A stretch of DNA of 51,026 nt, taken from Reclinomonas americana ATCC 50394. Lineage: Eukaryota. Location: positions 74,173 through 125,198 of the forward strand of contig PS015536.1 in assembly GCA_048213135.1 (NCBI GenBank), given 5' to 3'. Every line of letters begins with the position of its first letter. Position 1 is the stretch's first letter. A program made the position numbers and the translations under genes. This document shows positions 1,508-50,900 of this stretch, one piece after another. The notes below the pieces were generated by a model. The model saw only the letters and a list, made by a program, of their open reading frames with translations. It did no database searches and was not told where the DNA came from.

Positions 1508-4374
1508 CTAGTTTGGCAGCTTCCACAGCCTGTTGATCATGCGGAGCTTGTGTGGGATAGTGTAGTCACCACAGGCGTGCACCTGCATGTGTGTGTGCGT
1601 GTTGTTTCGTGAGTACACATTGTGTACAAGAAAGGAGAAACCGACGTGCGACGCACAATGATAAAGTCCATCTCCTCCGGTTTGTCCTTCATCTGCTGTC
1701 GCGACACAAGCAGCGTTATTCCGGGCAGTGAGTTGACCTGCTGCAGATTGAACCAGTCCATGCGTAGGCGGCCGAGTCGCACGTGCGTGTCCACCAGCGC
1801 GTTCATGAACTGCTGATCCTGCAGTTGCGACCAGCGCAGGTTCATCTGCCCCAGCGCGGCCGCGAACAAGCGCAGCGCGTACACGGTTGGGCGAGCCGTC
1901 CACACTCCCGTGTTGATGCTCAGTGTGTACTGATGGGAGGCGCACACGTGGCCCGGTGCACTTTTCTGTGCGCAGGAACGATGCAGTCTCGAGTGAGATG
2001 CGCGTCGAACACAAGAAGAGACCTGGTCATGCTTACTCACCGGGCCAAAGTCCGACACGCTGTTGGGAATGGTGTGGGACCAAGGATTGCGTGTTCGCTC
2101 CCTGGGTGTAGCCGCCAGCATCAGTGACGCATCGTGCTCGAATGAGCTAAAGAGGTCAGCCTGGAAGATGACGTCGGGCGGAATGTCGTACAGCTCCGAC
2201 GTTGACGACACTTGCGGCAGATCCCACACTGGTCGCACGAACATGGCATCCATGTCGACGTAGAACGGCTGCACACCACATCGCAGTAGCAGGTAGCCGT
2301 ACATGTAGCGCAGGTTGACGACCGGCGGGTACTTGATGATGTCGGGCTCGCGGTCCACCAGCCTGTGCAGTTGGTCGTGATCAGTCACTGCCCCTCGTAA
2401 TTCTCTCTCCCACTCCCTGCCTCACCAGCCCGACTCGTCCAGCACCACTGCAGCATCGGTTTCCTTCGACTCCAACAACCCCCTGACAGCCGTCACAGTC
2501 GTCTCGTCAGCGCACACAATGAGGGGGCGCAGTCGGTCGCCGTGCGTAGCATGGAAGCGAGACAGCCACATTCGGATCAACTCCAGGTACTGCTCCGAGT
2601 TCTTCGGTGCCAGCTGCACGGCTGTGAACACCACCAGCTGGTGTGGCGAGTCGCCGGGCCGCACAGACATGCGCGGTTGCGCCAACACAGTCGCCAGCTT
2701 CTCCAACATCTCCCGGCTCTCGTGCACCGGTGGTCCCTCTTGGGGAAACAGCGACTGCGGAGTGGGGGCGCGGCTGTCTCCAAGTGCCGCCGTCGCCTCC
2801 TCGAGTGCTGTCTTGTCTGCGAGTACGCGCCACATCTCGCTCTCTAACTCGCGACAGAGGTCGGCGGGATAGAACTCGATGCGCGGAAACTCTGCCGTAC
2901 GCTTGTGGGCGCGCAGTGCGGCGGAGAAGGTGTGCACGGGTGGGTGAGAGCGATCGGGCAGCGGCGCTGGCACCATGGTCAGGCTGCGTTGTGCGAACTG
3001 CGGACCGAGGTACTCGCACTCTTGCTCGTCCACCACCACCTTTTTTGCTGCGCCTGGATGCATGTGCATGCGACGAGTTGGTGAGCGAGAGTGTGTTGGA
3101 GAGAGCGCGTTAGCACGAAGAATATCTTTGTGCTCCGCCACAAACCGTGCAGAGAGAGGCAGAGGAGATCAGTGGGTGTCACTCGGGCTGTCGACAGCGC
3201 CAGGAACTGTGTGGCGAATCTCCACTCGGCGAGCATTGGAAGCTTCCGAGCTGCGGCGAGCTTGTTCACCACTGGTGTCTGAGCCAGCGGTGTCTGCCAC
3301 TGCACGGTGGATGTGCCGCAGCGGTCAGTGAGCGAAACAGGTCGCCGTTGGTGAGTGGTGTGTGTCTACGCAACGCTCCAGTCATTCACAAACTCGCAAA
3401 ACACCTTGCGTCGATCGGTGATCCACTTGTCTTTCTGTGTGACATGAAGAAAGCTGTGGTGAGATACGGGCAAAGAGAGAGAATGAACAAAATGCTTTGA
3501 CAGCCCGCCACCCTCCCTCGCACCTTCACCAACATGGTCCAGCTCTGTTGCAGCACGTCGCGCGCCAGCGCTTCGTCTCCACCAGCGGCAACCAAGGCTG
3601 CACCGTCAAGATCAGCTGCGTGAGAGCACTCTTTCCGTTTCAGAAAAGCCCGCTGCGCTCACTCACCCGCGCCCCACAGCGTTGATGCCGAATACGTGTC
3701 CACTTGCACATACTTCTGCTGCTGTGCGCCTCTCAGCGTCACCGACACTGTCCACGTTCGTGCAGGGTGCATGACAAAGCGCGGCATATCCATGTGATAG
3801 ACGCGATTCATTTCGCTGTCGGTAGTCGGCGATGCGAGAGCGCCGCAACCGACGCGCCTGAGATGGTCCGGCTACAGAGAGAGAAGCGCTGTGAGGAAGG
3901 CCGAGGTGGCGAGGGAGGGAGCTCGAGGGCGGGAGAACAAATAAATATACTCAGTACAAATATCTACGTAGGGTACGAACCAGCAGTGATGCAAACACAT
4001 TGGTGGCGACTCGGTGGACGAGGTCCTCCGTGAATGGGAGGGAGAGTGCCTTCTTTGACAACGTCTCTCTCACTGCAAAAAAGCATGTTCGGACCGCTTA
4101 TGATCAAAAAGTTGTGGTGCACTCGAATAACACTGCACTCACCTGCATGGCCGATCGTGGTGTGTGTGTGACTGACAGTCACCGCCACCACTTGTCCATC
4201 GGCAGCGTCGAGTGGCACAATCACTTCGTGCGCAGACAACGCAGGATCAAGCACACGCTGCGGGCTTGCAAGTCGCGGGTTGTCTCCTGCTGGTTCTCCG
4301 CGGCACACAGCAGCGAGGTGCAGGAGACAGAGAAGGAACGTGAGAGCGACACGACACGACGGCGGCCACCGCAT
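1508..4374 (-). CDS. Nucleotide-diphospho-sugar transferase (GT77/Nucleotid_trans-like) with long N-terminal extension, multi-exon
   Basis: N-terminal signal, DxD motif (FYVDMDAMF), INTGVW, QDQQFMN and the C-terminal H motif (IVHACG) typical of the family. Introns restore frame. Confidence 0.7.
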
Positions 4375-5196: not shown

Positions 5197-8100
5197 ATGT
5201 CAGGANNNNNNNNNNNNNNNNNNNNNNNNNNNNNNNNNNNNNNNNNNNNNNNNNNNNNNNNNNNNNNNNNNNNNNNNNNNNNNNNNNNNNNNNNNNNNNN
5301 NNNNNNNNNNNNNNNNNNNNNNNNNNNNNNNNNNNNNNNNNNNNNNNNNNNNNNNNNNNNNNNNNNNNNNNNNNNNNNNNNNNNNNNNNNNNNNNNNNNN
5401 NNNNNNNNNNNNNNNNNNNNNNNNNNNNNNNNNNNNNNNNNNNNNNNNNNNNNNNNNNNNNNNNNNNNNNNNNNNNNNNNNNNNNNNNNNNNNNNNNNNN
5501 NNNNNNNNNNNNNNNNNNNNNNNNNNNNNNNNNNNNNNNNNNNNNNNNNNNNNNNNNNNNNNNNNNNNNNNNNNNNNNNNNNNNNNNNNNNNNNNNNNNN
5601 NNNNNNNNNNNNNNNNNNNNNNNNNNNNNNNNNNNNNNNNNNNNNNNNNNNNNNNNNNNNNNNNNNNNNNNNNNNNNNNNNNNNNNNNNNNNNNNNNNNN
5701 NNNNNNNNNNNNNNNNNNNNNNNNNNNNNNNNNNNNNNNNNNNNNNNNNNNNNNNNNNNNNNNNNNNNNNNNNNNNNNNNNNNNNNNNNNNNNNNNNNNN
5801 NNNNNNNNNNNNNNNNNNNNNNNNNNNNNNNNNNNNNNNNNNNNNNNNNNNNNNNNNNNNNNNNNNNNNNNNNNNNNNNNNNNNNNNNNNNNNNNNNNNN
5901 NNNNNNNNNNNNNNNNNNNNNNNNNNNNNNNNNNNNNNNNNNNNNNNNNNNNNNNNNNNNNNNNNNNNNNNNNNNNNNNNNNNNNNNTTCTTCCTCTCTC
6001 TCTCTCTCTCTCTCTCTCTGTGCAACAGCTTCGTCAATGGCGAACGACGATTGTGCTGGTCATTGCGCCGCTGATCTTCACGATCATTCTCATCATCTTG
6101 CAAGCGGGTCTGTCGAATCAAGCCGGCACCAATGGCGAAGTCGGTGAGGCTTACCACTCTCTCTCGCCACACGTCTCTCTCTGTGCTCACTCTCGCTCTG
6201 CCAGTTCGCTCATTCCCCGTCACGACCGTGCCCAAAATCCCCAACTGCTATCCCAATCCAACCACCGGTCGCTGCACGACAATCGCCTACGCGCCCAACA
6301 ACGATGCCGAGCTGACGCAGGCCATTCTGAACATTGTGGCGGAGCACGGCATTCGTGACACGCCTGTGGCCTTCGAGTCTGGCGATGTCATCAACACGTA
6401 CCTCATCAACAACCGCAACACGACGCAGGCGGCGTACATTTTCAATTCCGCCTTCACCTCCAACGCCGTCGACTACACCATCCAGTACAACACGACGCAG
6501 TACTGCCGCGACATTTTGTGTAATAACCCGCAGCAGGACATTGTGGTGCGTGATGGGGCAGAGGTGGTGTGGTGTGGTGGTTGATCTTGTCCAACACACT
6601 CATCATGCCATGCAGTTGCCGATGCAAGTCGCCATGAACAATCAGGTACGCTCGTGTATTTTTTCTTTTTCTGGTGGTTGTCGCACACTCGCTCACTCTG
6701 CGAAAACGTAAACTCACAGCTCTGGTTGCGTCACTTTGGTCGCTCCAAGGCACGGCACTTCATTTTTTGTCTCTTTCCCCCCGTTTCATGCGCGTCTCAT
6801 CATGATCTCCACTGCGCAGACGACTTCCATGGCTCAGTACCCGCGTGCGGAACTGTACCGCGTGGATGGTACGCGACAGGTCGCCTGTTTCTCTCGCGCT
6901 GCGGAATCGCTCACACGCGTGCGCACAGTGATTGCCAACTTTGGCATCTTCTTCTACTTCCTGGCCTACATGTTCATCTTTATCGTCACTCTCGGACAAA
7001 TCGTGCTGGAGAAAGAGAACAAGCTGCGCGAGGCACTCAAGCTGGCGGGCCTCGGAGTTGCGTGTGTGTGTAGACCCCATGCTGTGTTATTGAATGAGCT
7101 CACCGCCTGCTGTGCAGAATGGCTCCTTCTGGACGTCGTGGCTTTTGCAGCAAATGATTCTGGTGACGCTGACCACGTTTATCATTATCGCCGCCGGTGC
7201 CGCCTTCCAGTTCCAGTTCTTCCTGAAGAACAACTTTGGCACGTACTTTTTCCTGTTCGAGCTCTTCGGCCTCAGCATTGTCATGCTCAGCTTCACGCTG
7301 TCGACCATCATCAACCAGTCGCGCATTGCCAGTTGCGGACCGCCGACAGCCACCAGTCATGAGACTCGACCTCACTCAGTTCTGTTTCGCAGCTCCAATC
7401 GGCTTTGTGCTCTTTATCGTGTTCTACTTTTTCGCATCGGTCGCCGGCAACATCTACCCGATTGTGTCAGAAGGTGACGCGGAGAACGTGGGGGGAACAG
7501 TCACAGCTCGAACTGTAGTTGCTTATCTATGTTTGCACCGCGCATCAGGCTGGCGTCAACTGTTTGCTTTTTGCCCCCCAATCTTGTTTGCCAAGGTCTG
7601 TTTCCGCAGAGGCGCGAGGCTGCCCGATTGCTCGTCTCACTCGCTGCTGCGCCGCAGGGTCTGAGCGACCTCGGCACGGCCGCCACCAGCGGACTGAGCA
7701 GTGGCATCTCGTTCAGCCGCGTCGCGTCATACACCGAGTGCGTAGCATGCTTGGGCACTCCATCTCTGCATTGGCTGACGTAAAGTGTTACCGCGCAGCA
7801 TCTGGCCTCTGAGCAAGATCTACGGCTGGCTGATTATTGACACTATCATCATGGGCATCATTTGCTGGTTTGTTTGCGAGTCGCCGCTCCTTGTGTGCAT
7901 TCTCTGCTCACCATGTCTCTTTTCTCCTCACTTGCAGGTACCTGGACCACGTCGTGGCATGTGCGTTGTGTGGCACATCGTTTGTCGGAGTCTGGTGTGT
8001 GGTACTGACACACTTTTGTCGTGTGTGGCGCAGCACCCTCTGGTGCCAGTGACCGCTGGTACTTTTTGTTCACCAAGTCGTACTGGACCGGCCGAGCGTC

Positions 8101-10008
8101 GTCGCACAAGCGCGAAGTGGAACGCGAGCGCCCGGGCCTGCCAGTCTCCGATGCGGTTTGTCTCCTTTTCTAAATTTTGCAGCATGCCTTGTCACCACCA
8201 CCTGGACTCATCGTGCTCGTGTGTCGCAGATGCGTGAAGACGAAGATGTGCGCGAGCTGCGACAGCGCTTGATGCGCGAGCCGCGTGCCAATGAGGCCAA
8301 CGCGCCGCCACTGTATGCTGTGCGCGTGGAGAACCTCATCAAGCAGTTCGGCAGCGGCCGCACTGGCTACGCTGTTAAGCGCCTGTACATGGCAGTGCAG
8401 CCGAATTCCCTATTCTGCTTGCTGGGTCCAAATGGCGCCGGCAAGGTATGTCTCTTACGTGTCTCTGTGTTCACGTGTTCGTGAGCTGACTTTCCCTCCA
8501 GACCACCACTATCTCCATGATTACGGGCCAGATGCCACCGACAGCTGGCTCGATTGAGGTCGACGGTTACGATATCTACATGCAGCTGCCGGAGATTCGT
8601 CGCACCATTGGCGTGTGCCCGCAATGTTGCGTCTCTGCTCCCGTGCTTTTCAAGCATAGACATGGCACTGACTGGCGTGGTCTGGCCCGCTGCAGTTGAC
8701 ATTTTGTGGGAAGAAATGTCGGCGCGTGAGCATCTCGAGCTGTTTGCGGGACTGCGTGGAATGTCAAAGAAGCGCATCCCCGATGAGGTGCGCGAGCGAC
8801 TGGAGCAAGTCGGTCTGTTCGATGTGCAAAACGATCGTGCCAGCTCGTTTAGTGGTGGCATGAAGCGTCGATTGTCGGTGGCCATTTGTTGCGTTGTTGT
8901 ACTTGCTCACTTCCCCTTTCCTCGGCGAATGCTTACTTTGGTGTGCTCCCTCACAGCGCTCATCGGCAATCCGACTGTCGTGGTGCTGGTGCGTCCCCCT
9001 TTCGTCTTTATTTTTGCTTTTCGTGCTCTCTGCTTTGCCTCACACCTCACATTGTAGGATGAGCCGACGACTGGCATGGACCCTGTCATGCGCCGCAAGG
9101 TGTGGGACATGATCGAGGAGGCCAAGCAGGATCGCACAATTATCTTGTTGCGTTTATACGCCGTGGCATTCATTGGTTGCACGCATGGCGTGCGCTCACA
9201 TTGTCTTCTTCTTCATCCGTTCACAGGACCACCCACAGCATGGAGGAGGCCGACATTCTCGGCGACTCCATCGGCATCATGGCACAAGGCCGTCTGCGAT
9301 GTGTTGGTCCATCGCTGCGCTTGAAGAACAAGTTCGGCGCCGGCTACCAGATCACACTGCACTGCGAACTCACTCGCATCCACGATGTGCGCGGACTCAT
9401 GCATCACATCTTGCCGGAGGCGCGGCTGGTGCAGGAGCTGAGTGGCTTCTTGACGTACAACGTTCCGCGTGCATGCACGTCTCGTCTGCCTCAGGTGTTC
9501 CGCACTCTCGACGAGTACACGGCGCAGTACGGACTGCGTGACATCTCAGTGCGCCTGACCACACTCGAGGAGGTGTTCTTGGCCATTGTGGCGCGCGCCA
9601 ACGCCGATGAGGCAGTGGTCGGCCCAAGCGCAGCACCGCAAGCCGTGATTATGGGACCCGATGGACAGGCCATTCGCACCACCATCCAGTTCGACGTGGA
9701 CGGCAACCCACAATTGGTGCCGGAGAACGGCGGGCCCGCCATCACTGGACATCTCGCCGCACAAGGTATAGTCACACTTACCCGAATGCGTCTTTTGGTG
9801 GCATGATCCTCTTTGCTGACTCAGCTGTGCCCCGCTAGCCGCCGCCGCTATTGGATTGAGTCCACCACAGCCGGCTGTTGCAGCAGGACCACAGCAGGTA
9901 GCACCATATCCAGGGCCTCAGCCGAATTCTCGTCCTCAATTTGCACCCTCGCCCTCGCCCTCGTCGGCGTCCGCTGCCGCACCACCATCACCAGCCGCAC
10001 GGCCATAA
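5197..10008 (+). CDS. ABCA-subfamily half transporter (one TMD + one NBD), ~16 introns, gap near 5' end
   Basis: [21 protein letters not shown] (Walker A), [23 protein letters not shown] (signature), [10 protein letters not shown] (Walker B), [29 protein letters not shown]. Pro-rich tail ends at TAA 10006-10008. The start at 5197 is tentative because it abuts the gap. Confidence 0.92.
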
Positions 10009-10202: not shown

Positions 10203-12740
10203 TTATTTGAACGGATATGCGCGCACACGGAACAACTGCGACGTGCCACGAATCGTGCCGTTCGAGACAAACTGGTGCAGCTGCTCCAGGGACAGCCGAT
10301 CCTTGCCGCCCATGCGCTCGACGAGGTCGCGAGTGCCACGATCGAGGGACTCGGGCGTCACGTCCTCACCCTTCAGCCTCTTGCCGGCGGCCACAATCGC
10401 CTTGATGTCCTGGCGATCGAGAGTACCGTCGCCTGCCGATTTGCGCAACATGGACATGTCAGCTTGTCTTGCGCGCACGTGCAAGAGTGAGAGAGAGAGA
10501 CGAAATCACGCACTCTTCTTGTTGTAAAAGGCGAAAATGTAGCCGAGACGGACCTGGAACGGCACACCACCAATGTTGTGGGCCGTGCCTGGATCGGCCG
10601 CAGCAAAGCCCAACACGGCTTGGCGCAGATCCACAAAGCCAGCACGGTCCCTGTCCATGGCGCGGAACCACTGCGCGTGCATGATTGATTGTGAGGCAAC
10701 ACAGTGGCAGACGCGGAGGAATGGCAGAAAAATCACGCAACAGCCTCGGCGTTGTCGGCCGCATCGGCCACACCCAGACGAGCGAGCAGGCGCAGCAGAG
10801 TCTCCTGGGTGTAGTGAGTGGCACCGCGACCGGCAGTGACCACGAAGCGCTTCCAGAACTACACACACAGACACACCATGTGCGTTGGTCATTGACGAGA
10901 AAAGAAAAGGCAGGCGACANNNNNNNNNNNNNNNNNNNNNNNNNNTTGTTTCACAGGCGACAAGCTCCTCAACCCCGCCGAGATGAAGGAGATCCTCAAG
11001 CACGGCCGTCTGACTCGTGGCCAGGAGGTGAACGATCAGATTCTGGAGGATGCGTACCGCGAGTTGGAGCGCGGCATCAGCAGCCCGGCTCCCGACACGC
11101 CGCTGCCGTTCCCCACCTTCTGCAAGGCGGTGTACGAGGGCAAGCTGCGTGGCACCAGCACTCTCTTCCGCACCCGCTACAGCTGCGATCAGGCACTCGC
11201 CAACCTCAAGTCTGGCGACGCAGGCTCCGGCTCCGGCTCTGGTGAGGTCAGTGCGGCGGCCGGCGGTGTGCCCGCCCCCGCGCACGGTCGCGCTGGAGCG
11301 TCGGGCAGTGGTGGTGCTTCGTCGTCTGCCGGTGCCTCGGCAGCGGCGCCAGCAGCAGCACCTGCCAAGGTGTGGCACTCATATGACCGTGCGTATTTAT
11401 AGTGCGCACGTGGCAACTCACTCGCACACAGTCGCAAGCCCCCGATGTGGATCCGATGAGCAGCACTGCGCTGGCGGAGCTCAAGGCCAGCTTCAAGCCG
11501 CACGAGGCTGATTTCCTCTCCGAGTGCAGGGTTGGCGACGAGGAGCTGCAGAATGTGCGTTGNNNNNNNNNNNNNNNNNNNNNNNNNNNNNNNNNNNNNN
11601 NNNNNNNNNNNNNNNNNNNNNNNNNNNNNNNNNNNNNNNNNNNNNNNNNNNNNNNNNNNNNNNNNNNNNNNNNNNNNNNNNNNNNNNNNNNNNNNNNNNN
11701 NNNNNNNNNNNNNNNNNNNNNNNNNNNNNNNNNNNNNNNNNNNNNNNNNNNNNNNNNNNNNNNNNNNNNNNNNNNNNNNNNNNNNNNNNNNNNNNNNNNN
11801 NNNNNNNNNNNNNNNNNNNNNNNNNNNNNNNNNNNNNNNNNNNNNNNNNNNNNNNNNNNNNNNNNNNNNNNNNNNNNNNNNNNNNNNNNNNNNNNNNNNN
11901 NNNNNNNNNNNNNNNNNNNNNNNNNNNNNNNNNNNNNNNNNNNNNNNNNNNNNNNNNNNNNNNNNNNNNNNNNNNNNNNNNNNNNNNNNNNNNNNNNNNN
12001 NNNNNNNNNNNNNNNNNNNNNNNNNNNNNNNNNNNNNNNNNNNNNNNNNNNNGAGGCGTGTTGAGAAGCATGGAGGGCGAGATTGAGAGATACAGTCTCT
12101 CTCTCTCTCACACACACACCATCCTTGTCGTAGAACGCAAACATGTACTTCAGGCGCACGTTGCAGGCCATCTCGCCCAGGTTGTGCGGTGTCGACGGGT
12201 CCATGGCCACCATGCCCATCACCGCCGAGCGGAAATCAATCGGACGACCACGAGAGAGCGCTTGGTAGAACTGCGCACTGGTGTGAGCGACGAGAGCATC
12301 TACGCTGCATCGCAGCTGTGTCACACGGACTGCACCTGGCGCTTGAACGAGCTCGCCGGCACGCCCATGGCGTCAATCAGACGACCGACACCGTCCTCGT
12401 CGAGCAGGTGCTTGCCGTCCTTGGGCAGGCCAGCGCAGTGGACGAACAGCTCGGCGGCCTGCACGGAGAGACGAGGAGTCAGGGAGGAGGAGGGGGAGGG
12501 AGGTGGACAGGGGAATGGGAGGGGAAGGAGAGAGGGGAGAAGGGAGAAAGAAGGGAGGGAAAGAAGGGAGGGAGAGAAGGGATGGGAGAGAGAGGTGCAC
12601 ATGCAGCGGAAGATATGTGTGCCTCGACAGGCGAAAGATGGTAAGCACGACGAAAGCACGACGATCGGCATGCTCAGATTGCATGCAATGTGCAAAAGAG
12701 GAAGAATCGCATGATGATCGCTCTCTCTTCCTTCTCCTCT

Positions 12741-18100: not shown

Positions 18101-18284
18101 ATTCGCAATCTTCAAGAGAACGAGACAGTGAGACAACAAGAGAGAGCAGCAAGTGTCGTGCGCTCGTAACTTTGGAGACAAAGAGGCCCACGCGGAGAGA
18201 CGAGGGAGGTGATGCCGCGTGAGTGGTGCAGGCAGTGAGCAGCAGAAGGAGGAGGAGAAGGAGAAGGGGACGAGAAGCGTGCAT
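15101..18284 (-). CDS. Cys-less (Pro-loop) pentameric ligand-gated ion channel subunit A, with extra TM helix and long S/P/T-rich tail, ~16 introns
   Basis: Signal peptide MHASRPLLLLLLLLLL; RVGLFVSKIANVVVDTGAFDATLVF; QDFPFD Pro-loop; IPGWEF; M1 TLLPPIFIVLIVLSSF; M2-M3 NLGVPSGTMTFADRFMLISY; M4 WMVWFIAPIPY; further helix TVVAPLLLLCIGGLVAVQFLIRL. Confidence 0.75.
15181..15250. repeat. 18-bp coding tandem repeat (~4 copies) encoding TQSP(P/R)(A/T)
   Basis: GGACTCTGCGTCG recurs every 18 nt and translates on (-) as PTQSPPATQSPRTTQSPRTTQSPP. Confidence 0.9.
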
Positions 18285-29534: not shown

Positions 29535-29581
<47 letters not shown>

Positions 29582-30698: not shown

Positions 30699-30836
30699 TG
30701 TGATGTGCACTTGTCCTGCGAAGGCGGGGTTTTTGTGTGACCCTCTTCCTGGATCCCTACGGAGCTCATAGAGATTGCCAGTAGCTCGAGAAAGCGGGCT
30801 GATCGACGCTCTTTCTCTCGTGGTTTTTATTCATAA

Positions 30837-34190: not shown

Positions 34191-34231
<41 letters not shown>

Positions 34232-37296: not shown

Positions 37297-40200
37297 CTAA
37301 TATGTGTACGAGTATTTCACCTGCGATGCGTGGCGGTGAGCGACAGAAATGTAGACCTGCGGCAACAAGGAGACGCTCACCTTGTACGGCCCACTGGCCT
37401 GCATACCGAGATGCTGGATGAGGGTGAACGCGCCAGGGAGGAGAGTGCGCGTGACCACGATTTCAGAGAGGTCACCGCCAACCACCACGTTGCTCGAGGC
37501 CTGAAAGTCCATGCAAATGTCCACCACGCGCCCTCCAACCACCTCCGCACCATAACTAAACGTGTGTCCACGCTTCGATTGGTACGTGTACAGCAGGATG
37601 CGCTGCGAGGCCTGCTGCACTCCGCGTTGGTGAATGAGAGCGGACCACGCTTGAACCATTAGCTGCGGCGCACAATAGTCAAATCACTGCCTCGCGCACG
37701 CAATGACATGTCGACAACGCACAGTCGGTTCTCGCGGCATGAGTGTGCACACAAACGGATCTGTGCTGTGCACAGACACCATGTAGCATCGACTGTGGAC
37801 CGAGCTGAACGAGTAGTCGTAGCCGAGGCGCGACAGGCACCACAAGACAACCCCCTGCACGTCACGCAGCTGGTGAGCAAGAGTGGCAGCAGAGGAACAT
37901 GAACGGAGGGGACTGACGCACTTCGCCTTGCTGCTCCAAGATGTTGCTGATGAACTGAATGAGTCCGCGCTCCGACAATCCGCGCCGAGTGCTGCAACAC
38001 CGCGGCAGTATGTGCTCCGCAAACTGCTGCTGCGAGAGAGGCTCGCCAATCATGCGCATGTACAGGCGCGAAAACTCGGCGTAATCCAACACCTCGTCCA
38101 TGTCCATGTCGTACGTGCGGAACACATCCTGCGACGCAAACTCGTGAGCGACACAGCAGAATGTGTGCTGCTGCTGTTGCTGTCACGCAACTCGAAGGGT
38201 CGACACGAGTTCGTGGCGCAGTGTCCGATCGTCGTGCTTCAGTGTCGGTGGCACATCGAGGCACGCATCGGGTATCTGTGAGCGCAACATGCATCCGGTG
38301 GTTCTGCGAGAAACAGTTCGTAAGTGAGTCGTAACTGCGGCGAGGCCGCGGTAATAATAGCAGGCACGCAACATGGGCACCACAGTGTACACGCCAGGCT
38401 CAAGGTCGCACTCCAGCTGCCACTGCCGCTCCCTGGCGGTGCCGTTCTCCGCCACCACGGTCAGCGATCCGTCGGCTTCTCGTCGGAAAACCACCAGGCC
38501 ACAATCGATATATGGCCGATGCACATCCACCCAAAACTCCCTCTCGTCCTCCTGATGGATCGTCAGGTAGACTCGCGACCGCTGCAGGATCTGTGTATCG
38601 GCACGGGAAAGTGCGAATGAGATCTCTGTCACCAAAGTCCAACTATGTGATGCACACAGTCACCTCGAGAGTGTACGACGAGCACGACACCGAGTGGTCG
38701 AGCTCGCGCTGAAACACGCCCTTTAACCTGCTCTCCTGCCACTCCGGTCGCACCCTGCTCGAAGAATCACATCATCAGCGCAGTGTGGACAGACAACAAT
38801 CCGCAATGCGATAGTGACACGCAACATGCAAAACGACATCTGAGAGAATTCGACGAAGAAGTCCTCAAAGCTCATGTAGAACTCTCCATTTTCCTCCTCC
38901 ACCGGCGCCAGCACCGAGCGCAATTCTGGCGTCCACAGCGGGGACGCTGATGACCAATCGCCGTTCCTGCAAGAGAATCACAACGAATGAGGAGACAAAT
39001 ACCACGCGCCTCGGTCAGGTGCAAAGTGTCACAAACCACCTGTCACGACACACAATGAGTTTCGTGTCTCTGACTCGACAAGAACGCACAAGGGAGACGC
39101 GTAACTCAAAGCGACCCCACGGATTGCGCAGTCGGAGGAGACGGTGACCCTCAATGTCGAACGCTGCCTGAATCGTGTACGAGTGGCCGGGGACAAGTCC
39201 ACTGCCCGAGCGCGGCGTGTCGCCTTCTTCGGTGAACGTGTCCACCCCTGCCCGACAAGCGACAAGAGTGAGCCTACACGCAAGTATTCGTGCTTCTGCG
39301 CCATCAGCCACCTTTGGTCTCCGCACAACATACATCGCCGTCGCACATGCGCGTGAGAATGTGCTGCCAGAGGGCGCCACTGGCCATCATCTCTTCCGTG
39401 TGCGGATGCTCGAGCACAATGTGCTCGAACGGTGCGCCAGTGAGATCAATCAGTGCGTCACGCGAGCAACCCCGTCGTAGCTGCCATCATGCATCATCGA
39501 TCAGACATGCGGATGAAAGGGGAAAACGGAATCGACGGGTCACTCGTGCACACCTGGTTGTAATTGCCGTGCAGTTTGGCATACGCCTTTTCCAGCAAAC
39601 TTACCCACAACTGATCGTTCTGGCAGCGTGAGAAGATGAAACCACCACCTGCGCAGTCGAGCAATGAGGCGGAAAGGCCAAGAGGCGATGTGAAGAGACG
39701 AATGCAGCGCCCCGACTTACCAACGCTGCACGGAAAGTAATCGTCCACTGTCACCGTTCGCCACTGTCCGTGTTTGGCGATTCGCATCTGCACACGCACA
39801 CACGCACACACAGATGCTCCAGTGAGCAGAACTGGAGGCGAGTGAGAGGTTGACACGCAGTCGCAAAGAGAGACCTTGTACACGCCGAGTGGATCGTACT
39901 CGTCGGTGACAAAGAGGCGTCGGATGCGCTCTGGCTTTTCCGCCAGCGCGGCCACGGCGCTGAGGAACCAGCTGCATGCGATATGGTGGAAGATGGTCAG
40001 CTCTTTGAATCAACAGATGCCTGTGCAACAAAGAATGAACGTCACCAGTCGGCGAGCTTGCCCTGAATAATGGTCGACGGCTCCATGCTGGCGCCCAGAA
40101 TCACCGGCTCACTGTCGCCCTTGCCCCGCGCTCGCATAATCTCCAGTGGTCTCTTCCACTCGATAGACGACATCTGTGTGCGTGCGACTCGGCCAATGAG

Positions 40201-41304
40201 CAACGAGTCACGTGGAAAAAAGGATGCCGGCGACCCACGCAACGCTCTTGTCACGCTCCGTGTCCGACTCAAAGATCGAAGTCATGAGCGGAGGAAAGTC
40301 AAGATCCACAAAGCTCAGCGGCTGTGCACGCTCGCGGGCCATATCGCTGCACGCGGCCTCCTGCAGGTACGAGCGGATGCGCTCCGCCGGCATGATGTCA
40401 CTCGGCAAGTCGCGCAGCAGCTGTCGCGCAGTGTCAGCGGTGAAGCAGCAGAGAAGGGAGGAAGAAGAGGTGTGTACCTGCTCGCCCAACGACACATGCT
40501 CAAGGACACGCGCCGCCGATTCAAGCGCCATCACTTCGGACTCGCGTCGCGACAGCTGTCGCGTTTGCACTCTGCACGACGAGGTGTGAGAGCGCTGTCG
40601 AGAGAGAGAGAGAGAGAGTGATCCAATAACAACCCGCCACACCTGTAGTGCACATGAAAGTACATCGGCTGCAGCGGATCCACACGATCCACACGCGTCA
40701 CAAACTTGGTCTCCCCAGCCATCACCGATGCATTCACCACCGTGCTGTCACTGCGCACCAGCTCTCGTCAACTCACCACCACCGTCACTCGCGACACAAA
40801 GACAGATCCACAAACGCAACGAGCTGGCACTCTGCACGCGCACATTACTGCAGTCCTTGAACGACAGCTCAATGTCCAGCGGCTGCCCCGACTCATTCTC
40901 CACATGATACGCAAAGTAGGCCGGCTGTGTCAGCGAATATCAGTCACAGATCTTCCGCACTCTGCGACAGCAGAGTTCCCTCGTTACCTGTTCCGTGCCC
41001 ACCATGAGGCTCAGCTCGCCCAACGGCTTCACCAGCACCTGCCGGATCCACACTCCCTCGCCCGCACAGATGCTCTCCACCGTGCTCGACTCCTCTTGCG
41101 CCTCTTCCTTTGCCTCTTGCGCCACTGTCTCTATCTCACCAGCGCGCTTCTTCGCACGCTGAAGTCGCCGACGAAGTATCTGATCAACATCATCGTCGTG
41201 GCCACGACTGCTCGACGCCTAAACATCATTGTCACATGTCAAACTCGGGACATTCTTTGGTGATCTTCTTTCTTGCACGCGCGCACACACGCAACTTGTG
41301 ACAT
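37297..41304 (-). CDS. Calpain cysteine protease (CysPc + C2-like + EF-hand, with beta domains at both ends), ~17 introns
   Basis: Intact triad QGKLADCWFL / GHSY / RNPWG, plus VDDYFPC, WVSLLEKAYAKLHG and EF-hand DMDMDEVLDYAEF. Confidence 0.92.
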
Positions 41305-41452: not shown

Positions 41453-42546
41453 ATGGCTGAGGCTGCGGAGCTGGCGTTGTTGCGTCTCTTTCTCTGCGCT
41501 GTGAGTGAAAGTGACCAGTGTGCCTCTCTCACACACTCTTGCACACACACAGAGGATGGCAACGCTTTGATTTCCGTCCACTGGTGCCCGAAGACATGGA
41601 CGCGTTGCGCAGATTACACGAGGCGTGCTTCCCAGTGAGGTGACACACACACACACACATACACACTTTCTCTCTCTCTCTCTCTCTTCTCACTCGTGCA
41701 TAGATACGAGCAAGCGTTCTTTGACGACCTCGTGCACCATCGTTACTGGAGTGTGTGTGTGGTGGATCGCTCAGAGGCACCTGGTGCTGCACCTGCGCGA
41801 CTGGTGGGCGTGATCAGTGCGCGGTTTGAGTTGCTGGAGAACTGCGAGGTTTTTACTCTCTCTCTCATTGTTTCGTCTGTTCTCTGCCTGTGAGTTGGGG
41901 CCTGACTGCACTGTGCTGCAGCATCACGACATGGTGAAGGAGAGCTGGTGTGCGCGCGACGAAGTCATGTACATATTAACGCTGGGCGTCGATGAAAGTG
42001 TGCGCGGACACGGACTTGGTGTGTACACGTGTCTTGCTTTGCTGGTTGGATGCTCTTTCGATTGATTGGTGTCGAGCCGTGCAGGATCCACGCTGGTGGA
42101 GTATGCGGTGGCCAAGGCGGAGCGCAATCGCGCCTGTCGTGCCGTGTATCTGCACACGCTGCCGAGCAATACGACGGCGGTGCGGTTTTATCAGCGGAAT
42201 CGCTTCGTGGTGAAGTCGTCGCTGGAGGTGTGCTGGATCTTCCCCCCACACACACACTTCCCCCCGTCGTGTTGGGCTGACGACGACGAGCTGTGCGCAG
42301 AAATTTTATACGATAGACAATGAGCAGTTTGACGCGCTGCTGGTGGTGCTGTATGTTAATGGTGGCCGCCCAGCGAGCAGGTGACCCCCTAAACCTTACT
42401 CCGCCCTCTTCTACACGTCATCGCACTCACCGAATTCGCAACGCAGCTGGACGTTGACGAATGTGTTGAAAGAGTGCTGTCGATCCGTGTCGCGCATGTT
42501 GTCGGCCGACGATGCACCGTCACCTCCACCGAAAAGATATGAATAA
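41453..42546 (+). CDS. NAA60: N-alpha-acetyltransferase 60 (GNAT)
   Basis: CFPVRYEQAFF, YILTLGVDESVRGHGLGSTL, CRAVYLHTLPSNTTAVRFY, LYVNGGRP and a C-terminal amphipathic segment with CC. Confidence 0.85.
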
Positions 42547-42725: not shown

Positions 42726-44000
42726 TTACTCTTCGCGCGAGAACACAACCTTGAGGATGGAATGCAGCAGCACTGGTGCCTCCTCCACATTCAGGTACAT
42801 GTCGCTCTTGAGGTATTCGGGAACGAGGACCGTGCTTGGCAGGCCAGGTGGACCGGCGTAGATGCGCAGCGGGTTGTATTCCAGGTCGCCCTCCATGGTC
42901 TCGTTCAACTCGAACACCATTTCTGGGAGCAAACACAAAGTGAGCACAGCTGGCAGGATTCTTCGCTTCTGCCACACGCACGCACCGCGCTTGGTCTGCG
43001 TGCTCTGGCACGTGCACACGACGCGCCCGTCGTCGTTAATGTCGACCGTGCACCCGGAGAACATGGTCATAAAGCTCAGCAGCCTTTGCTCGTGTCCACG
43101 AGCGCCCGACGATGATGATCCCACCGAAGCACGTGACATGCGCTCGGACGGCATGTTGGCGTGCGACTTCATAATCTCCACTGTGATAGAGCCGTACATG
43201 AGATCGTGTGACATGCGAAAGAGGCTGTGACGAGCACGCAACTCTCCGACTGCAGCTCGAGAATCGTGTTCTTCAGCTCAATGTTCTCGCGCTCCGCATC
43301 GCGGATGCGTGCCTGCAGCGAATCCGCCTCGCGAGTGCTCTGCAGCGTTCGTGCCAGCTCCGCACGCATGCTCTCAATCAGCTTGGTCGACGCTGCGAAG
43401 AAAAAATCAACAAAGGCACTGATGTCGAAGGGGGCAGGCGAGGCAAGACGCACCAGCTTCCAGCTTCTCGTACTTTTGACGCAGAGAGGCGGCCACACGT
43501 TCCGGCTCCGTCTGTCGCAGCACCATCAGCTCCTCGAGTCGCGTGCGCAGTGCAGAGTCAGGCACATTGGAGGCAGCAGCGGATTCCTGTCAACAACGAC
43601 GACATTCATGAGCACACTCATGAGCACTCGTCTCTCTATCTCCTTCTCTCTCTCTCTCTCTCTGAAACACACACGCACAGTCGCCGTCAGACGTGCCTTC
43701 AGACCCTCGCCGCTTGTCCGTCGCTTGCCGGACTTCTTGACGGGCTTGGCCGCGGCCGCCTTGTGCTCTGCCAGCACGGGCTTCTGCCGAACATGAGACG
43801 AGTGTGTGAGAACGAGGAGAGGTGCAGAGTGAGTGGAGTGTGCGTGTTCGCTCAACTTCATTCTCGGCACCGAGCGACGAGCGCCTGCGCGTCGACTGCC
43901 GCTTGAGTGGAGGCTCCGCGGGCGACTTGTTTCCCGCATCCTCCTCCTCCTCCTCGCTCATAATCTCCGCCACAGCGGTGCGCTTTCGACTGCGAGCCAT
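42726..44000 (-). CDS. Monopolin subunit Csm1/Pcs1/TITAN9-like (coiled coil + RWD)
   Basis: LRQTEPER coiled-coil motif and RWD-like C-terminus MVFELNE...LEYNP...VPEYLKSDMYL..EEAPVLL. Confidence 0.65.
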
Positions 44001-45775: not shown

Positions 45776-47451
45776 CTATTCTTCACCCATCACCACCGCC
45801 CGGAGCACCTCCATGCAGCCGACCGCCGCCAGTCGCTGGTATTCCTCCTCTGAGATGGCGAACATGGAGCCGAGGAAGGCCATGGCGTTGCAGCCGAATC
45901 CAAAGGCCTCTTCGCGCTCACGAGGAATGACGAGAAGGTACTCTTTCGTCAGCAGAATATTGTACGACGGTGCGCCGTGATCAAAGTCCACTTCGATCGG
46001 CTCGTCTTCCTCGTCACGCGATTCGCCAGAGTCTGCGGGGCGTTTTCGTATCAAGAACAGTTGCGAGGAAATGGTTTGCTTGGCAGACACAAGACGCAAC
46101 GGCGAGCGGTGGGGTACACAGCGAGGCGTTCGACTCGCTTGTGGAAGCGCTTACCGCCCTCCTCTAGCCCCAACACATGCAACTCGGCCTTCAGCAGCTT
46201 ATGCAGCGCGCCTGCATAGCGCATCGTCACCGCGGCGTACTCTTCGCTGTTCGTCTCGCACGCCAGCACCTCGGCAGAGTAGGAGCCGATGAGGTCGGTG
46301 ACATCCAACAGCAGGTGGCGGAACTTGAGCGCCGGGCAGTGCAACACACGCGAGTGCGGCGGTCGCCACCGCGGCGACGCCAACACCCCATCCGAATCGC
46401 CATCCGAATCCGAACCGGACGCCGACGCACTCCCCGCTCCACGCGCCACACGATGCTGCCGCACAGCCTCGCAGATGAACACATGCAACGGGAAGGTCGA
46501 GTGATCCAGCGGAACCATTTGCAAGTGTCGATGCGGTTGACTGTGGCATTCGAAAGATTCATCGGTTCGCATATTTTTGCATGCATCATCTCGACATCAA
46601 AACAACAAGCGTACGAACCTCGGTCCCGCCTCCACGCCCTTGTTGTAAAAGATGAGCACATCGTTCGGCACGCCCTCATCGTACGCATATCGTGCAAGCG
46701 CGCTGGCAACAAAAACTTTCTTCAGCAAAAAAAACAAAGGGAATATGCAATCGCCTGCGAGTGACAGAGAGAAAAAGAGGGCACCTGATAGACGCCGCCG
46801 TGTCATTGACCGACAGTGGAGCACACTGCAACTCAAACTGTCGCGTAGTGATCAGCACGTGATAGGGCACCACATTGAACTTGTTCAACACGAGCGTGTG
46901 GTCCGGGAACGCCTCCTGCTCACACAAGTCAACAGAGAGACAACCACTCAGTGAGAGAGAGGGAGAGAGAGGCACTCAACTTCCTCCACTGTGAGCTCGG
47001 GGTCTGGAGGGAGGAACGGATCATACACTGCGCGTCGCTCTTCCACGAGAAGCCCATCGGAGGCGGGAGAACTTTGTGTGTGTCAGACAGACAGAGAGAG
47101 TGAGAGAGTGAGAGTGGACACTCACACACAATGCACTCTCACCCGTGTCGCGTGACATCGTGCTGGCGATCCAAGTTGCTTGTCTTGCGTGGTCGCTGCG
47201 TGGCCACAGACACATTCCACTGTGCGCAACATTGTGAGAGTGAGAGAGTGTGTGTGTCTTGTATGTGTGTGTCTCTGCTCACCTCCACGCCATCTTGCGA
47301 CAAGACGCGACGCTCACACGGAAGAGTGCACAGTGCACCAGTGCTCAACGCATGCTCTGCAACCTCACGCACTTGACACACACAAAGGCATCAGTGAGAA
47401 CATACTGTCTATGTGTGAGCGTGAGAGAGCGCACGCACCTCGCTTCCACAT
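45776..47451 (-). CDS. Ap4A phosphorylase / ATP adenylyltransferase (APA1/2-like)
   Basis: DPFLPPDPEL, HTLVLNKFNVVPYHVLITTRQFELQ, FYNKGVEAGPSQPHRHLQ (HxHxQ), SYNILLT...LVIPR, NAMAFLGSM. Confidence 0.9.
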
Positions 47452-47518: not shown

Positions 47519-47873
47519 ATGGCGACTGCATCACCTCCACCTCCGCTGTTTGTGACTGCGGGAGTGGTGTGGGGCTCGCCCACTACCCTGCACTCACAGT
47601 TTGATGTGCTCTTTGTTGGCCGCGCAGAGTTCATTGTTGCGTTTCTCTCTCTCACACTCACATCTCTCTTTCTTGTGCATGCACTTATGCTCTCTCTCTC
47701 TCTGTGCAGGCATATGGTCGTGGTCGCTCTGTGCTCGTCTTCTGTGATGGCTTTCATCGGTGGACACTGGAGGGACACGATGAACCAGTCACGTGTGTGG
47801 CCTGGTGCGGATCAGGCAAGGTGCGGAACACACACACTCCCCCGCATGCACACACACACACACACACACACAT

Positions 47874-47911: not shown

Positions 47912-50900
47912 ATTGCATGCATGCATGCTCCACAACAGATGATTGCATCGGGATCGCAAGGTCGCGTGGTCATTCACAAACTGGGAGCCAATGGAGCGGT
48001 GTGTGTCTCTCTCCCGCTCTCTCCCTCCCTCTCTCATTAACACACCACTGATACCCTGCACATTCCTCTCCTCTCTCTCAGTGGCTGGTGGATGCGGTGC
48101 TGATGCTGAACGAGGAGGAGGTGACATCGCTCTCGTGGAGTCTGGAGGGCACGAATCTGGTGGTGGGCGGCTCGGCGCTGTCGCTGTGGCGTGCCAGAGA
48201 GTCCATGCAGCAGGTAAGTACAGTGCGTGTGGAGAGAGAGAGAGAGCAATTCTCACTCGTTGGCGTAGGCGGAGGACGATGAAGCCGACAATGGCCTCGC
48301 GTACCGGCGAGTCTGGCGCGCGGACAGCGCATCGCGGATTCTCAAGGTCGCCTACTCGCCCGACGATCGCTACTTTGTGTCGATTGCGGAGAACTCGCGC
48401 ATTGCGCGCCTGTGGTACCTCAGTCAGGATGGTGTGCGGGATGCATTCCATGCTCCCAGATTCGCCAGAAATCTCACTTTCGTTTCTCCCAGCCTTCATG
48501 TTGGACGTGTTCCTCACGCATCCGCGTGCCGTGACAAGCGTCAGCTGGAAACTGGACGAGTTGTCGGACTCGCACAAGTTACGCTGCATCCGTGCTTCCC
48601 CACCGCAGAGAACCTGCTCAATTCTCGTGTGATGATGATTCCAGATGGCGACCTGCCTCACTGGTGACCGCTTGCCTCGACGGCACTGTGCGTGTGTGGT
48701 GCGAGTCTGGCAAGAGCGAGGATATGCTGTTCTTTGTCACTTGCGCCTTCCGCTCGAGTTCCGAAGTCGGTCGGCACGTGTCGTCCGTGGGCTTTTTGCA
48801 CAGTCTCGAAGCATTGCGGTGCATTTGAGGAATCGCATGTCTCTCTCTCTCTTTGTTTCTAGTGGATACTCATATTTGTGCAAATCAGGTCTGCGCGTCG
48901 CACATCGCGACTCGATCAAGTAGACGGCGGTCATGCCACGGCCTCCACCACTCTGCTCTCCAACGTCAAGGGTTGGTAGTCATCTTACTTTCCTCTCTCC
49001 GCTCCACCCCTCACTCTTCCTCTCCGCAGTGGCCGAGTCGCCGGTGTGCTGGCTGTACGCGGTGGATGACCGCGGAACCTTCTCGATCCACATTATCGAT
49101 GGGTTGTCGGACCGCCCGCGTCGGACACCGAAAGAGATGCTCTGGATGCGCATGGTGCGTCCGTGTGTATGCACACTTCACGCGCTACTTCTGTCCTCAC
49201 CATTCTCTCTTCTTTCCTTCATAGCCGGAGGCCTTTGACCGCGGTCTGGCGTGCTCCACGGGCTTCATGGCGCGCCTGTCGGCCAAGACCGCCGCCACCG
49301 AGGTCATCTTGTATGCCACAGAACCGCGCGGCCTGCTGAAACAGTATCGGCTGCTTACGGACAGCGCCAAGGACGCGCCCAACTCGTTGCGTCACTCGTC
49401 TCTTGCCTCACGCTGCCGCCGTCCTCGTGTGTGTGTGTACTCACGATGCGTCGCAGTGGCACGTCGGAGCTGTCGACGCAGCGCATCCATGCCGGCACGG
49501 TGGCGCATCCCCGTCGCATCCACGTGCATCGACTGGAACGCGTGTGTGCCATCATCTCGAAGCACGAGGCCATCATTGCGCACGTTCGCCAACTCAAGGT
49601 TACTCGCCACTCCTTTTGCGTCGTGACGCCCGCACTCATCGACCTCCGTCGCGCAGTTTGGCACCGCCGGCAACCTCATCAGCATCATTCAGAGCATTGG
49701 ACGACTGACCTCGTCGACATTCTGCTGGACTCCGCGCCTGGTCACCTTCCTGGCCGTCGTGCAAGATGCCATCACTCTCTTCCAGATCCACGCTCCGGAG
49801 AAAGACGGCATTGATCCCACGTCGCCGCAGCAGAACGTGGTGCTGCCCATCATGGCGATCCGTGAGTCGGCCGGCATGCGCATCGAGCACGTGCACTCGT
49901 TTGTGCGATACAATGGTCTCACACTGTGTGTCTTCTACCAAGCTCGTCTTCGTGCTGCTCATACTCTTTTCGTTGTGCAGCGCCGGATACGCAGTTGGTA
50001 GTGGTGGCCACCGGCGGCGACGACTCGTGTGAGGTGTACTGCTGGGTTCTGGACATGGAGGCTGGTGCGTTTGCTGTCGCCTTTTCCCCCTTAATGGGAA
50101 TCTCATGATGCGCGCGGCATGCAGATGGAGACCAGCGTGTGGTGCTGGAGTCGTCAGTGTACCTCGAGTCGCCGATTCTGTCGATTGATGGCATTGGCGA
50201 GAACCGCGTGTGTGTTGGATGCAAGGACGGCAAGGTGCGCTTCCTGCAGGCGAACGGACCCGGTGATTTTGCGCAAGTGGGCGACATGCAGATTGGTCAC
50301 GGCCCGGTGGTCGTCGTCAATGTTTTCGAGGCATTCATCTGCATTGGTAGGCAGGCGGTGTGTGGTGTTGAAAGTCGATTGGCATCAGTGCTCACTGCAC
50401 TTGCTACACAGTGTGCGACGATCGTCACGACACTGTGCAAGTGTGGGAATTCGAGTCCGAATATCCCACTTTGCGCAAGTCGTGGGAGCTGTCAGTCGGG
50501 TGCGCACACCGTGGGGCCATGGGCGCTTCACTTGGGGGAATCGTGTGTTCACTCCTTTCCCTCCTCTTGTCACAGTGGAGAGATTTTCCGCAGCGAGGGT
50601 CGCATGTCGCCTGGCGGCTCGGTGCAGATTTTGGTGGCCCACTCCGGTGGAGTGACGCTCGCCGAGCTCGATCGTGGTCAGTGGCTCGTCTCGGCAACGC
50701 TACCGACGTTGAGTTTGTCTGCTGCTCCAGCGTATCATGTGGGTCTGCGTCTCACCCTTGCTACGCCTGCACAGCGAGTACGCCGCATTGTGCGTGTCGG
50801 CGCTCCCCTCTTCGCACTTTATCATGAGCACCGCGGATCGTGTGTCTGTGAAGATGTGCACTGTCGATCGAGAGTACAGTTTTGTCGCCGCAACCATGTT

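Follow-up and report, generated by a model that had tools for sequence, protein, structure and literature searches.

An abundant GTTGCGT class of intron starts in a 51 kb nuclear segment of Reclinomonas americana and its possible reading by U1 in a shifted register

Introduction

How is the 5' end of an intron recognized when its consensus appears to have moved one nucleotide downstream of the GT at which the intron begins? Work on cut-site choice under an out-of-register U1 small nuclear RNA (snRNA) has relied on reporters and on a few dozen human sites that are themselves exceptions. The question is raised here by a 51,026-nucleotide (nt) stretch of DNA from the intron-rich, flagellum-bearing protist Reclinomonas americana ATCC 50394 (contig PS015536.1 of assembly GCA_048213135.1, forward strand positions 74,173 to 125,198), which we call the window and within which all positions below are counted from its first letter, with the strand given as + or −. 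It is nuclear DNA of about 57% G+C with six assembly gaps, and its genes lie densely on both strands and are cut by numerous short introns. An earlier sequence-only reading had proposed that about 45 of these introns, roughly a quarter, begin with donors in which the usual motif (given as GTGCG, GTGAG or GTACG, with G at intron position +5) contains an extra T, so that the G stands at +6. At rare human sites U1 is known to pair in a shifted register, and diversity in the U1 register need not entail diversity in U6 pairing (PMC4856993).

We find that these intron starts are genuine, that about one in three of the window's introns has such a start, and that they are depleted in the exonic G that normally precedes a donor. 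We put at roughly 0.55 the probability that U1 reads them in a register shifted by one base.

Abundance of the GTT donors

The motif is present on the named strand at all 45 donors of the sequence-only reading (39 GTTGCG, 3 GTTGAG and 3 GTTACG), and in 35 of the 39 GTTGCG sites the next base is T. The resulting heptamer GTTGCGT occurs 40 times on the two strands of the window, where dinucleotide-preserving shuffles (n = 100) give 11.5 ± 3.6 and none reaches 40. Thirty-five of the copies are sites of the sequence-only reading, three more (6725 +, 17961 − and 21412 −) are donors in our own gene models (below), and one (32200 −) would be a plausible first intron of a gene absent from those models; the sole non-donor, at 36387 (−), lies antisense within an intron. 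By this count 38 or 39 of the 40 copies are intron starts. Signals that require no gene model point the same way: CTNAY...YAG follows at +40 to +160 after 33 of the 40 heptamers versus 33% of the 6377 scorable GT sites, and the 50 nt downstream of GTTGCGT are 8 points richer in pyrimidines than the 50 nt upstream.

Independent gene models were made with a Viterbi gene finder that uses frame-specific Markov coding scores trained on the long open frames of the window, and whose knowledge of donors in the first pass was limited to GT (GT..AG plus coding potential). GTTGCG was the commonest donor hexamer in that pass, with 8 of 52 introns (no other hexamer exceeded three) against a background of 76 among 6477 GT sites (binomial p 2e-7). 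After self-training the parse settled on 151 introns, or on 153 when donor counts were taken leave-one-out. The 153-intron parse contains 43 GTTGCG, 3 GTTGAG, 2 GTTACG and 5 GTTTCG donors (together the GTT donors below), and its ordinary donors comprise 21 GTGCGT, 11 GTGAGT and a tail of weaker ones. GTT[GA][CA]G therefore starts 48/153 introns (31%), or 53/153 (35%) when GTTTCG is included, shares that must be read as approximate because they come from an error-prone gene finder trained on the window alone. They are nearer to a third than to the quarter first suggested, and GTACG, which had been counted among the usual motifs, is not a common ordinary donor in this parse. The trained parses recover 42 of the 45 sites of the sequence-only reading and add six further GTT[GA][CA]G donors; for 36 of the 45, no other +5G donor lies in frame within 15 nt, and the two donor classes stand side by side within the same genes. 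The proposal of a shifted donor class as a major mode of intron start in the window is thus borne out by statistics, by the independent parse and by the homology described next, and the class is almost certainly real.

Placement of the cut by homology

The parse permits only GT..AG introns, so that GT-AG ends are true by construction at sites where homology gives no test. But do the proteins themselves place the cut at the GT? Single exons were searched and the profile or chain numbering was compared across each junction, and spliced models were aligned locally to homologues, an alignment being counted as ungapped when it has no gap within ±6 residues of the junction. The homologue sets were 120 relatives of the ABCA-type transporter gene (241 alignments) and 150 relatives of the IQCH gene. 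Profile numbering is continuous across the donor at 8626 (+), where ABC_tran position 66 at the exon end is followed by a split codon, three residues and position 71; at 7057 (+), where ABC2_membrane_3 position 201 falls at residue 78/79 of the exon and position 205 at residue 3 of the next; at 26413 (−), where Cpn60_TCP1 position 56 at the exon end is followed by 58 at residue 2 of the next exon; and at 39105 (−) in Peptidase_C2, where the numbering of solved calpain chains fits as well. The ABCA alignments are ungapped in 226/228 cases at 8626, 231/232 at 8888, 207/237 at 9147 and 154/158 at 7057 (all +), and the IQCH alignments in 68/68 at 33877, 60/65 at 36772 and 69/99 at 36493 (all +). 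At these junctions, removal of a GT-AG intron restores the frame to the exact residue. The spliced IQCH model aligns over nearly its whole length to its relatives (E down to 1e-177), and its variant donor GTTTCGT at 34688 (+) is ungapped in 63/72 alignments. In a channel-like gene, the junctions at 17817 (−) and 17666 (−) align without gaps to a paralogue within the window. The conserved motifs that GTT introns had been said to split (CPQ-F-DIL and IIL-TTH in ABCA, LS-I-PLAY in IQCH, YLP-GD in the MscS-like channel and QD-SRVGDG in the chaperonin-like gene) are all intact in our own spliced models. On this sequence evidence about a dozen GTT donors are pinned independently of the gene finder.

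These data bear directly on the possibility that the class is an artefact, either because chance GTTGCG copies sit in wrong gene models or because the true cut lies one base off (G/TT..., where the slash marks the cut). The hexamer GTTGCG alone shows no excess in the window (76 copies against 65-84 for similar hexamers), the sites first proposed were picked by eye and our own parse was self-trained, all of which such an explanation could draw on. Against it are the heptamer excess, the model-free downstream signals, the unbiased first pass, and the residue-exact continuity both in Pfam profiles and against the 120 ABCA and 150 IQCH relatives. A G/TT cut used with the same acceptor shifts the frame, and in the chaperonin-like gene the shifted frame meets a stop within seven codons. 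Moving both intron ends by one base was considered also; the downstream exon starts with G in only 19 of 53 cases, so the messenger RNA would differ in most. The artefact explanation is by now largely refuted, and we regard it as extremely improbable.

Immediately after the intron that starts at 39105 (−) there is a probable micro-exon of 3 nt, GTG at 39037-39039 (−), between the introns 39105-39040 and 39036-38967. With it the calpain-like protein reads RNPWGRF-E-W-NGDW, and without it the protein is one residue short; the micro-exon exactly fills positions 245-248 of Peptidase_C2, as well as 273-276 in 1mdw_A and 275-278 in 1ziv_A. Two very weak donors in the same calpain domain, AAG/GTCTCT at 39874 (−) and AAG/GTGGCT at 39311 (−), are confirmed or supported by Pfam numbering.

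The exon-side signature

The exon end before the GTT donors does not look like that before ordinary ones. G occupies the last exon position (−1) at 54/72 ordinary (+5G) donors and at 4/53 GTT donors (p 7e-15). The difference is the same in a parse without exon-side scoring (49/69 versus 4/54), and among all 40 GTTGCGT heptamers, G precedes only five. In its distribution the −1 base of the GTT donors matches the −2 base of the ordinary donors (p 0.82) and departs from the ordinary −1 base (p 2e-13). GTT donors vary less in the remainder of the motif, with the C before the conserved G present in 50/53 sites versus 30/72 ordinary ones and the T after it in 44/53 versus 46/72. Fifty-eight donors have G at +6 and none at +5; T stands at +3 in 53 of them, and the other five all have G at −1 (p 3e-5). 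Introns in phase 0 number 35/72 with ordinary donors and 20/53 with GTT donors, a difference that leans toward a freed exon end and is not significant. From the sequence comparison, G/GTGCGT and /GTTGCGT are best described as a single seven-base motif cut at two places one base apart, with G or T in its second position.

The donors that were grouped as 'other' often have G at −1 (16/27) and A at −2 (12/27), as if there the exon side bears the signal.

A shifted U1 register and its alternatives

The arrangement suggests the following mechanism. The recognized motif would be G-[G/U]-U-G-C-G-U, seven bases long. At ordinary donors the first G of the motif would be the last exon base and the cut would fall before the second G (G/GUGCGU); where that second base is U instead (the GTT class), the only GU lies one base upstream and the cut would fall before the first G (/GUUGCGU), which would make the 5' splice site wholly intronic. 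U1 would pair with both forms in one register relative to the GCGU core, a register that at GTT sites is one base downstream of the canonical one, with +1G substituting for the exonic −1G (opposite C9 of U1), +3U for +2U, +6G for +5G and +7U for +6U. Cleavage at the GU would then be fixed by the later U6, U5 and Prp8 steps, with +3U spare between the catalytic centre and the U6 pairing. For G+6 and U+7 to reach the U6 box +3U must be spare, and some looping out would therefore be expected at the catalytic stage. The gain for the gene would be that its exon end need no longer be G.

A lack of −1G preference is a prediction of this shifted model (it is not a published criterion), and the 4/53 versus 54/72 found here agrees with it. 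The principal alternative retains the canonical register: U1, and later U6, would pair at G+1 and U+2 as usual, one U of +2/+3 would be looped out, and GCGU would pair as it does in GUGCGU. A register with this bulge, at +3 or at +2, has been described for human sites (PMC4856993), and any model needs some looping of +3U at the U6 stage. A bulge should keep −1G, +1G and +2U paired; with C9 of U1 left free for it the −1G preference should persist or grow, but it falls to 4/53, and any base should be tolerated at +3, but T fills that place in 53 of the 58 +6G donors and the other five retain −1G. Taken together, the loss of −1G and the near-fixed +3T favour a shifted U1 register over a bulged base for the GTT class, and the bulged reading, although it has real points in its favour, seems to us unlikely.

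Several observations nevertheless weigh against the shifted register or against the counts on which it is built. Counted by hand against the canonical U1 5' end AUACUUACCUG (taken from PMC4856993; the host U1 may differ), GUUGCGU forms 2 Watson-Crick pairs and 1 wobble pair in the canonical register and 4 + 1 in the shifted one, and the bulged register with one U out also reaches 4 + 1, equal to the shifted register. These counts presume a canonical U1, which by analogy with the Archamoebae (below) need not hold. The donor GTGACGT at 40045 (−), a verified +6G site that lacks +3T, fits the shifted register poorly and looks bulged; more generally, the +6G donors without +3T look bulged or exon-anchored. 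Positions −2 and −3 carry too little signal to discriminate between registers, and canonical U1 gives no reason for the strong C preference at +5. The cut site itself rests on protein homology together with the GT-AG rule. Many or most alignments have a gap near the junction at 7332 (+; 95/164 ungapped) and at 36338 (+; 23/116), the latter in a loop whose length varies among IQCH orthologues, several of which do align without gaps. The parse did not recover the proposed sites at 14585 (+), 18799 (+) and 18170 (−), and it missed a GTAAGT donor at 39720 (−). Known errors of the gene finder include a GTCTCTT chosen with GTAAGT lying 21 nt upstream and, in the first parse, a GTCATAC chosen with an in-frame GTGCGT 12 nt downstream.

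The C preference beside the G may, by analogy, point to a changed U1 arm, and this introduces another explanation, in which U1, a U1 variant or U6 has a changed 5' arm complementary to GUUGCGU and the GTT class is its cognate site. The greater uniformity of the class (GTTGCG in 43/53, +5C in 50/53) is what an optimal site would show, C at +4/+5 is left unexplained by canonical U1, the best ABCA homologues of the window are amoebozoan, and there are reported U1 precedents in the Archamoebae: Entamoeba U1 has ACAAAC, which matches GUUUGU donors, and a Mastigamoeba U1 candidate has ACGUAC, with GUGCGC donors (bioRxiv 10.1101/2022.06.08.495308). The same preprint, however, describes standard U1 in Thecamonas and Micromonas despite their +4C donors, and the two donor classes of the window share one seven-base motif that a single RNA could read. 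An Rfam search of the window for snRNAs gave no matches at gathering scores, and with E up to 1 returned only sub-threshold sequences resembling microRNAs or small Cajal body-specific RNAs; no snRNA gene was found within the window. As a replacement for the shifted register a cognate snRNA is quite unlikely, but a changed U1 arm and a shifted register are not mutually exclusive. A bolder combination, in which uncoupling of U1 binding from the cut site is routine across the genome, an altered or second U1 reads GUUGCGU, U6 tolerates the spare +3U, and a third of exon ends are without splice information, is tentative at best and on balance doubtful.

The kind of intron

Are the GTT introns otherwise ordinary? 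Their median length is 70 nt versus 67 nt for ordinary introns, and the two sets have similar interior composition and similar CAG ends. A branch-like CTNAY motif is found in 48/53 GTT introns and 62/67 ordinary ones, at a median distance from the 3' end of 18 and 17 nt, respectively, with CTCAC the commonest form in both, followed by CTCAT and CTGAC. By sequence, the GTT introns are ordinary U2-type GT-AG introns of 55-150 nt that have a branch site of CTCAC type and end in CAG. U12-type introns are marked by the donor RTATCCTT and the branch motif TCCTTAAC. Neither is present here, where the donors are GTTGCGT and the branch motifs CTCAC, CTCAT or CTGAC. The GTT introns resemble U12-type introns in that a further, sharply conserved class of donor accompanies the ordinary donors within the same genes, but the GTT introns share the ordinary branch and 3' signals and occur much too often.

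The branch-like motif takes the form CTCAC in 57 of the 110 introns with CTNAY (for example 26355-26413 (−)), more often than CTAAC or CTGAC, which puts C ahead of the presumed branch A. The hexamers found most often in the window, with about 250-260 copies each, are those of (GA)n and (GT)n microsatellites; these are largely intronic, and some begin immediately after the donor (GTTGCGTGTGTG..., for example 29540-29585 (−)).

A fixed heptamer with no exon-side consensus could also be produced by introners, that is, the GTTGCGT introns might descend from one mobile element that brought its own 5' end and inserted regardless of the exon base, and introners are known in diverse protists (PMC9860276). 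Past the first 7-8 bases, however, GTT introns resemble one another no more than they resemble ordinary ones (mean best match 21.4 versus 20.5 bits; 53 introns, window), the top-matching pairs are CT-rich low-complexity sequence, no terminal repeats are visible by eye, and neither length nor branch site sets the GTT introns apart from ordinary ones. In one pair of paralogues, moreover, one and the same aligned place is occupied by a GTTGCGT donor in one member and by a GTGAGT donor in its partner. Copies old enough to have lost all similarity would have kept the heptamer through selection, which returns the question to recognition. Introners as the source of the class are therefore highly improbable.

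The paralogues just mentioned are those at 10741 (−) and 12803 (−), which share the intron place; that their donors differ there indicates that the donor class can switch without movement of the exon end. In a second pair, 17170 (−) and 24073 (−), both donors are GTTGCGT and the intron places lie one base apart in the alignment.

Individual donor sites

In the account of the sites that follows, each heptamer is given by its range and, in parentheses, by intron length in nt and last intron base; 'listed' sites are those of the sequence-only reading with the motif checked, and the parse is our own gene model. Listed GTTGCGT donors that are also in the parse begin, on the + strand, with four in the ABCA gene at 7057..7063 (61, to 7117; Pfam and homologues), 8626..8632 (70, to 8695; Pfam and homologues), 8888..8894 (69, to 8956; homologues) and 9147..9153 (80, to 9226; homologues). 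The donor at 14052..14058 (74, to 14125) follows an exon that fits the EIPR1 propeller profile to its last residues, and that at 20603..20609 (67, to 20669) an exon that aligns to solved MscS chains to residue 100/101. Then come 21650..21656 (127, to 21776), 21871..21877 (145, to 22015) and 22440..22446 (74, to 22513), the IQCH donors 36338..36344 (69, to 36406), 36493..36499 (60, to 36552) and 36772..36778 (70, to 36841), with the homologue counts given above, and 41479..41485 (74, to 41552), 47636..47642 (74, to 47709) and 49386..49392 (71, to 49456).

On the − strand the corresponding sites are 3368..3374 (75, to 3300), 10735..10741 (71, to 10671; the adjacent paralogue has its GTGAGT intron at the aligned place), 16144..16150 (61, to 16090), 16879..16885 (63, to 16823), 17164..17170 (69, to 17102; the paralogue intron at 24073 is no more than one base from the aligned place), 17660..17666 (60, to 17607; ungapped against the paralogue) and 24067..24073 (77, to 23997; the paralogue of the 17170 place). 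Further along are 27123..27129 (66, to 27064), 27783..27789 (74, to 27716), 28550..28556 (63, to 28494), 28952..28958 (71, to 28888), 38185..38191 (63, to 38129) and 38366..38372 (69, to 38304). At 38819..38825 (71, to 38755) the upstream exon ends at Peptidase_C2 position 296/297 and the downstream exon has no match. The remainder are 40237..40243 (70, to 40174), 40814..40820 (70, to 40751), 41289..41295 (77, to 41219), 43236..43242 (62, to 43181) and 46094..46100 (68, to 46033).

Other heptamers are found at listed donors in the parse as follows: GTTGCGG at 7332..7338 (+; 61, to 7392; homologues) and 17811..17817 (−; 63, to 17755; ungapped against an uninterrupted paralogue exon), GTTGCGC at 26407..26413 (−; 59, to 26355; Pfam Cpn60_TCP1) and 33877..33883 (+; 77, to 33953; IQCH homologues), GTTACGC at 39099..39105 (−; 66, to 39040; Pfam Peptidase_C2 and solved calpain chains) and 48578..48584 (+; 67, to 48644), GTTGAGC at 43850..43856 (−; 73, to 43784), and GTTGAGT at 46974..46980 (−; 65, to 46916). 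The unlisted donors added by the parse are GTTGCGT at 6725..6731 (+; 95, to 6819), in a poorly conserved region where 16/37 high-scoring segment pairs are ungapped, and at 17955..17961 (−; 61, to 17901) and 21406..21412 (−; 78, to 21335), GTTGCGG at 20104..20110 (+; 80, to 20183), GTTGCGC at 41604..41610 (+; 100, to 41703), and GTTGAGT at 50708..50714 (+; 67, to 50774).

The variant GTTTCGT, which also has G at +6, is a parse donor at 13663..13669 (+; 63, to 13725), 34688..34694 (+; 77, to 34764; homologues as above) and 41870..41876 (+; 52, to 41921). It is uncertain at 16548..16554 (−), among tiny exons, and at 17076..17082 (−; 65, to 17018), both in the unreliable middle of a gene model (16300-17450 (−)). 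The +6G donor without +3T, GTGACGT at 40039..40045 (−), has G at −1, is placed by Pfam profile numbering (57 before the junction, 59 after it), and splits the codon of the calpain active-site Cys (gac tg/GTGACGT...gcag/c tgg ttc). Three listed sites have the motif, are absent from the parse and are best called unconfirmed: GTTGAGT at 14585..14591 (+), GTTACGA at 18164..18170 (−), where the parse starts the gene at a downstream ATG, and GTTGCGT at 18799..18805 (+), perhaps in a 5' leader.

One further GTTGCGT donor, at 32194..32200 (−), is probable; it is unlisted and outside the parse, and by eye it follows an ATG and 7 bases and opens an intron of about 155 nt that ends in CAG before the frame 30840-32045. 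That open frame of 402 codons, inside 30278-32210 (−), where the gene finder predicted no gene, is WD-repeat-like by eye and likely has a short first exon followed by the GTTGCGT intron.

Genes of the window and their relatives

Gene identities were assigned by searching single exons against Pfam. They comprise an ABCA-type transporter (5988-9806 (+)), EIPR1 (13171-14988 (+)), an MscS-like channel (19870-20946 (+)), clathrin light chain (21631-23124 (+)), a chaperonin-like gene (25690-26670 (−); Cpn60_TCP1, E 1e-20), IQCH (32325-37034 (+)) and a calpain-like protease (37297-41304 (−)), and the window also contains a GNAT acetyltransferase, RPA2, Ap4A phosphorylase and, at its right end, a WD-repeat gene. 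The best matches to window proteins in protein collections are 47-58% identical, and the window's own proteins are absent from these collections. The nearest ABCA relatives are 47-52% identical and their sources include protosteloid amoebae; the nearest IQCH relatives are about 30-35% identical across the full length. The chaperonin-like gene may encode a divergent chaperonin-like protein and not a CCT subunit, judging from its sequence; a word-based search with a chaperonin exon among longer proteins found no relative. A homologue search with a calpain exon, solved-structure searches with two short exons and a metagenome scan with an IQCH exon each returned no match.

Two families are present in more than one copy. 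Between 10203 and 12938 (both strands), three adjacent and apparently related genes form a tandem family with 40% and 29% identity, and a pair of membrane proteins at 15101-18170 (−) and 23311-24522 (−) has the motif FPFD in common and is 29% identical over about 210 residues. Neither family gave a confident Pfam match.

Significance

An intron-recognition mode that is a rare oddity in humans appears routine in this piece of a protist genome. If roughly a third of introns are of this kind genome-wide, there would be hundreds to thousands of natural test cases, and the presence of two donor classes in the same genes would allow them to be compared directly. Such comparisons bear on whether U1 register, U6 pairing and cleavage position are separable, on the co-evolution of snRNAs with splice signals, and on whether signals that lie only in the intron relieve coding constraint at exon ends. 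If U1 binding is indeed uncoupled from the cut, the organism would offer a natural case of a cut placed one base off the U1 register by the hand-over from U1 to U6. For annotation, the consequence is that donor models built on a single position-weight matrix would mis-splice a large share of the genes of this lineage.

Comparison with known systems

Human sites read in a shifted register are rare, scattered exceptions. How do the GTT donors compare with these and with other departures from the usual donor? We found no description of a GTTGCG/GUUGCG donor class, or of a shifted-register class in protists, in the open-access library searched.

In Eurytemora affinis, GA or GG donors are reported to begin about 12% of introns (PMC5714493), a lineage-specific class that, like the one described here, is frequent enough to matter for annotation; there the GT itself is changed, whereas here GT is kept and it is the downstream register that moves. 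The Archamoebae are similar in showing a lineage-wide departure from GUAAGU, with Mastigamoeba having +4C donors and a matching G in its U1 candidate and Entamoeba having the T-rich GUUUGU with a preference for +7U, but they use a single canonical-register consensus whose G is at +5, whereas in the window two classes coexist and one has its G at +6 (bioRxiv 10.1101/2022.06.08.495308).

The bulged registers of Roca et al. 2012 (as cited in PMC4856993 and PMC9311317) are closer, in that one extra nucleotide lies at +2/+3 and the downstream G and U pair as usual. They differ in that a bulge leaves C9 of U1 to pair with −1G; in the window few donors of the GTT class retain −1G (4/53), and nearly every extra base is U. 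Closest are the human shifted (+1) sites of Roca and Krainer 2009 (as summarised in PMC4856993), where likewise the GU donor matches U1 poorly in the canonical register, the G is at +6 in place of +5, every U1 pair is displaced by one position, and the cut is at the GU. The GTT donors differ from them in their frequency (about a third of window introns), in the near-fixed GUUGCGU with a core of GCGU and not AAGU, and in the marked lack of −1G. The human shifted-register donors are the nearest known counterpart and the bulged registers the next, and what sets the window apart is the scale of the class, the sharpness of its motif and its exon-side signature.

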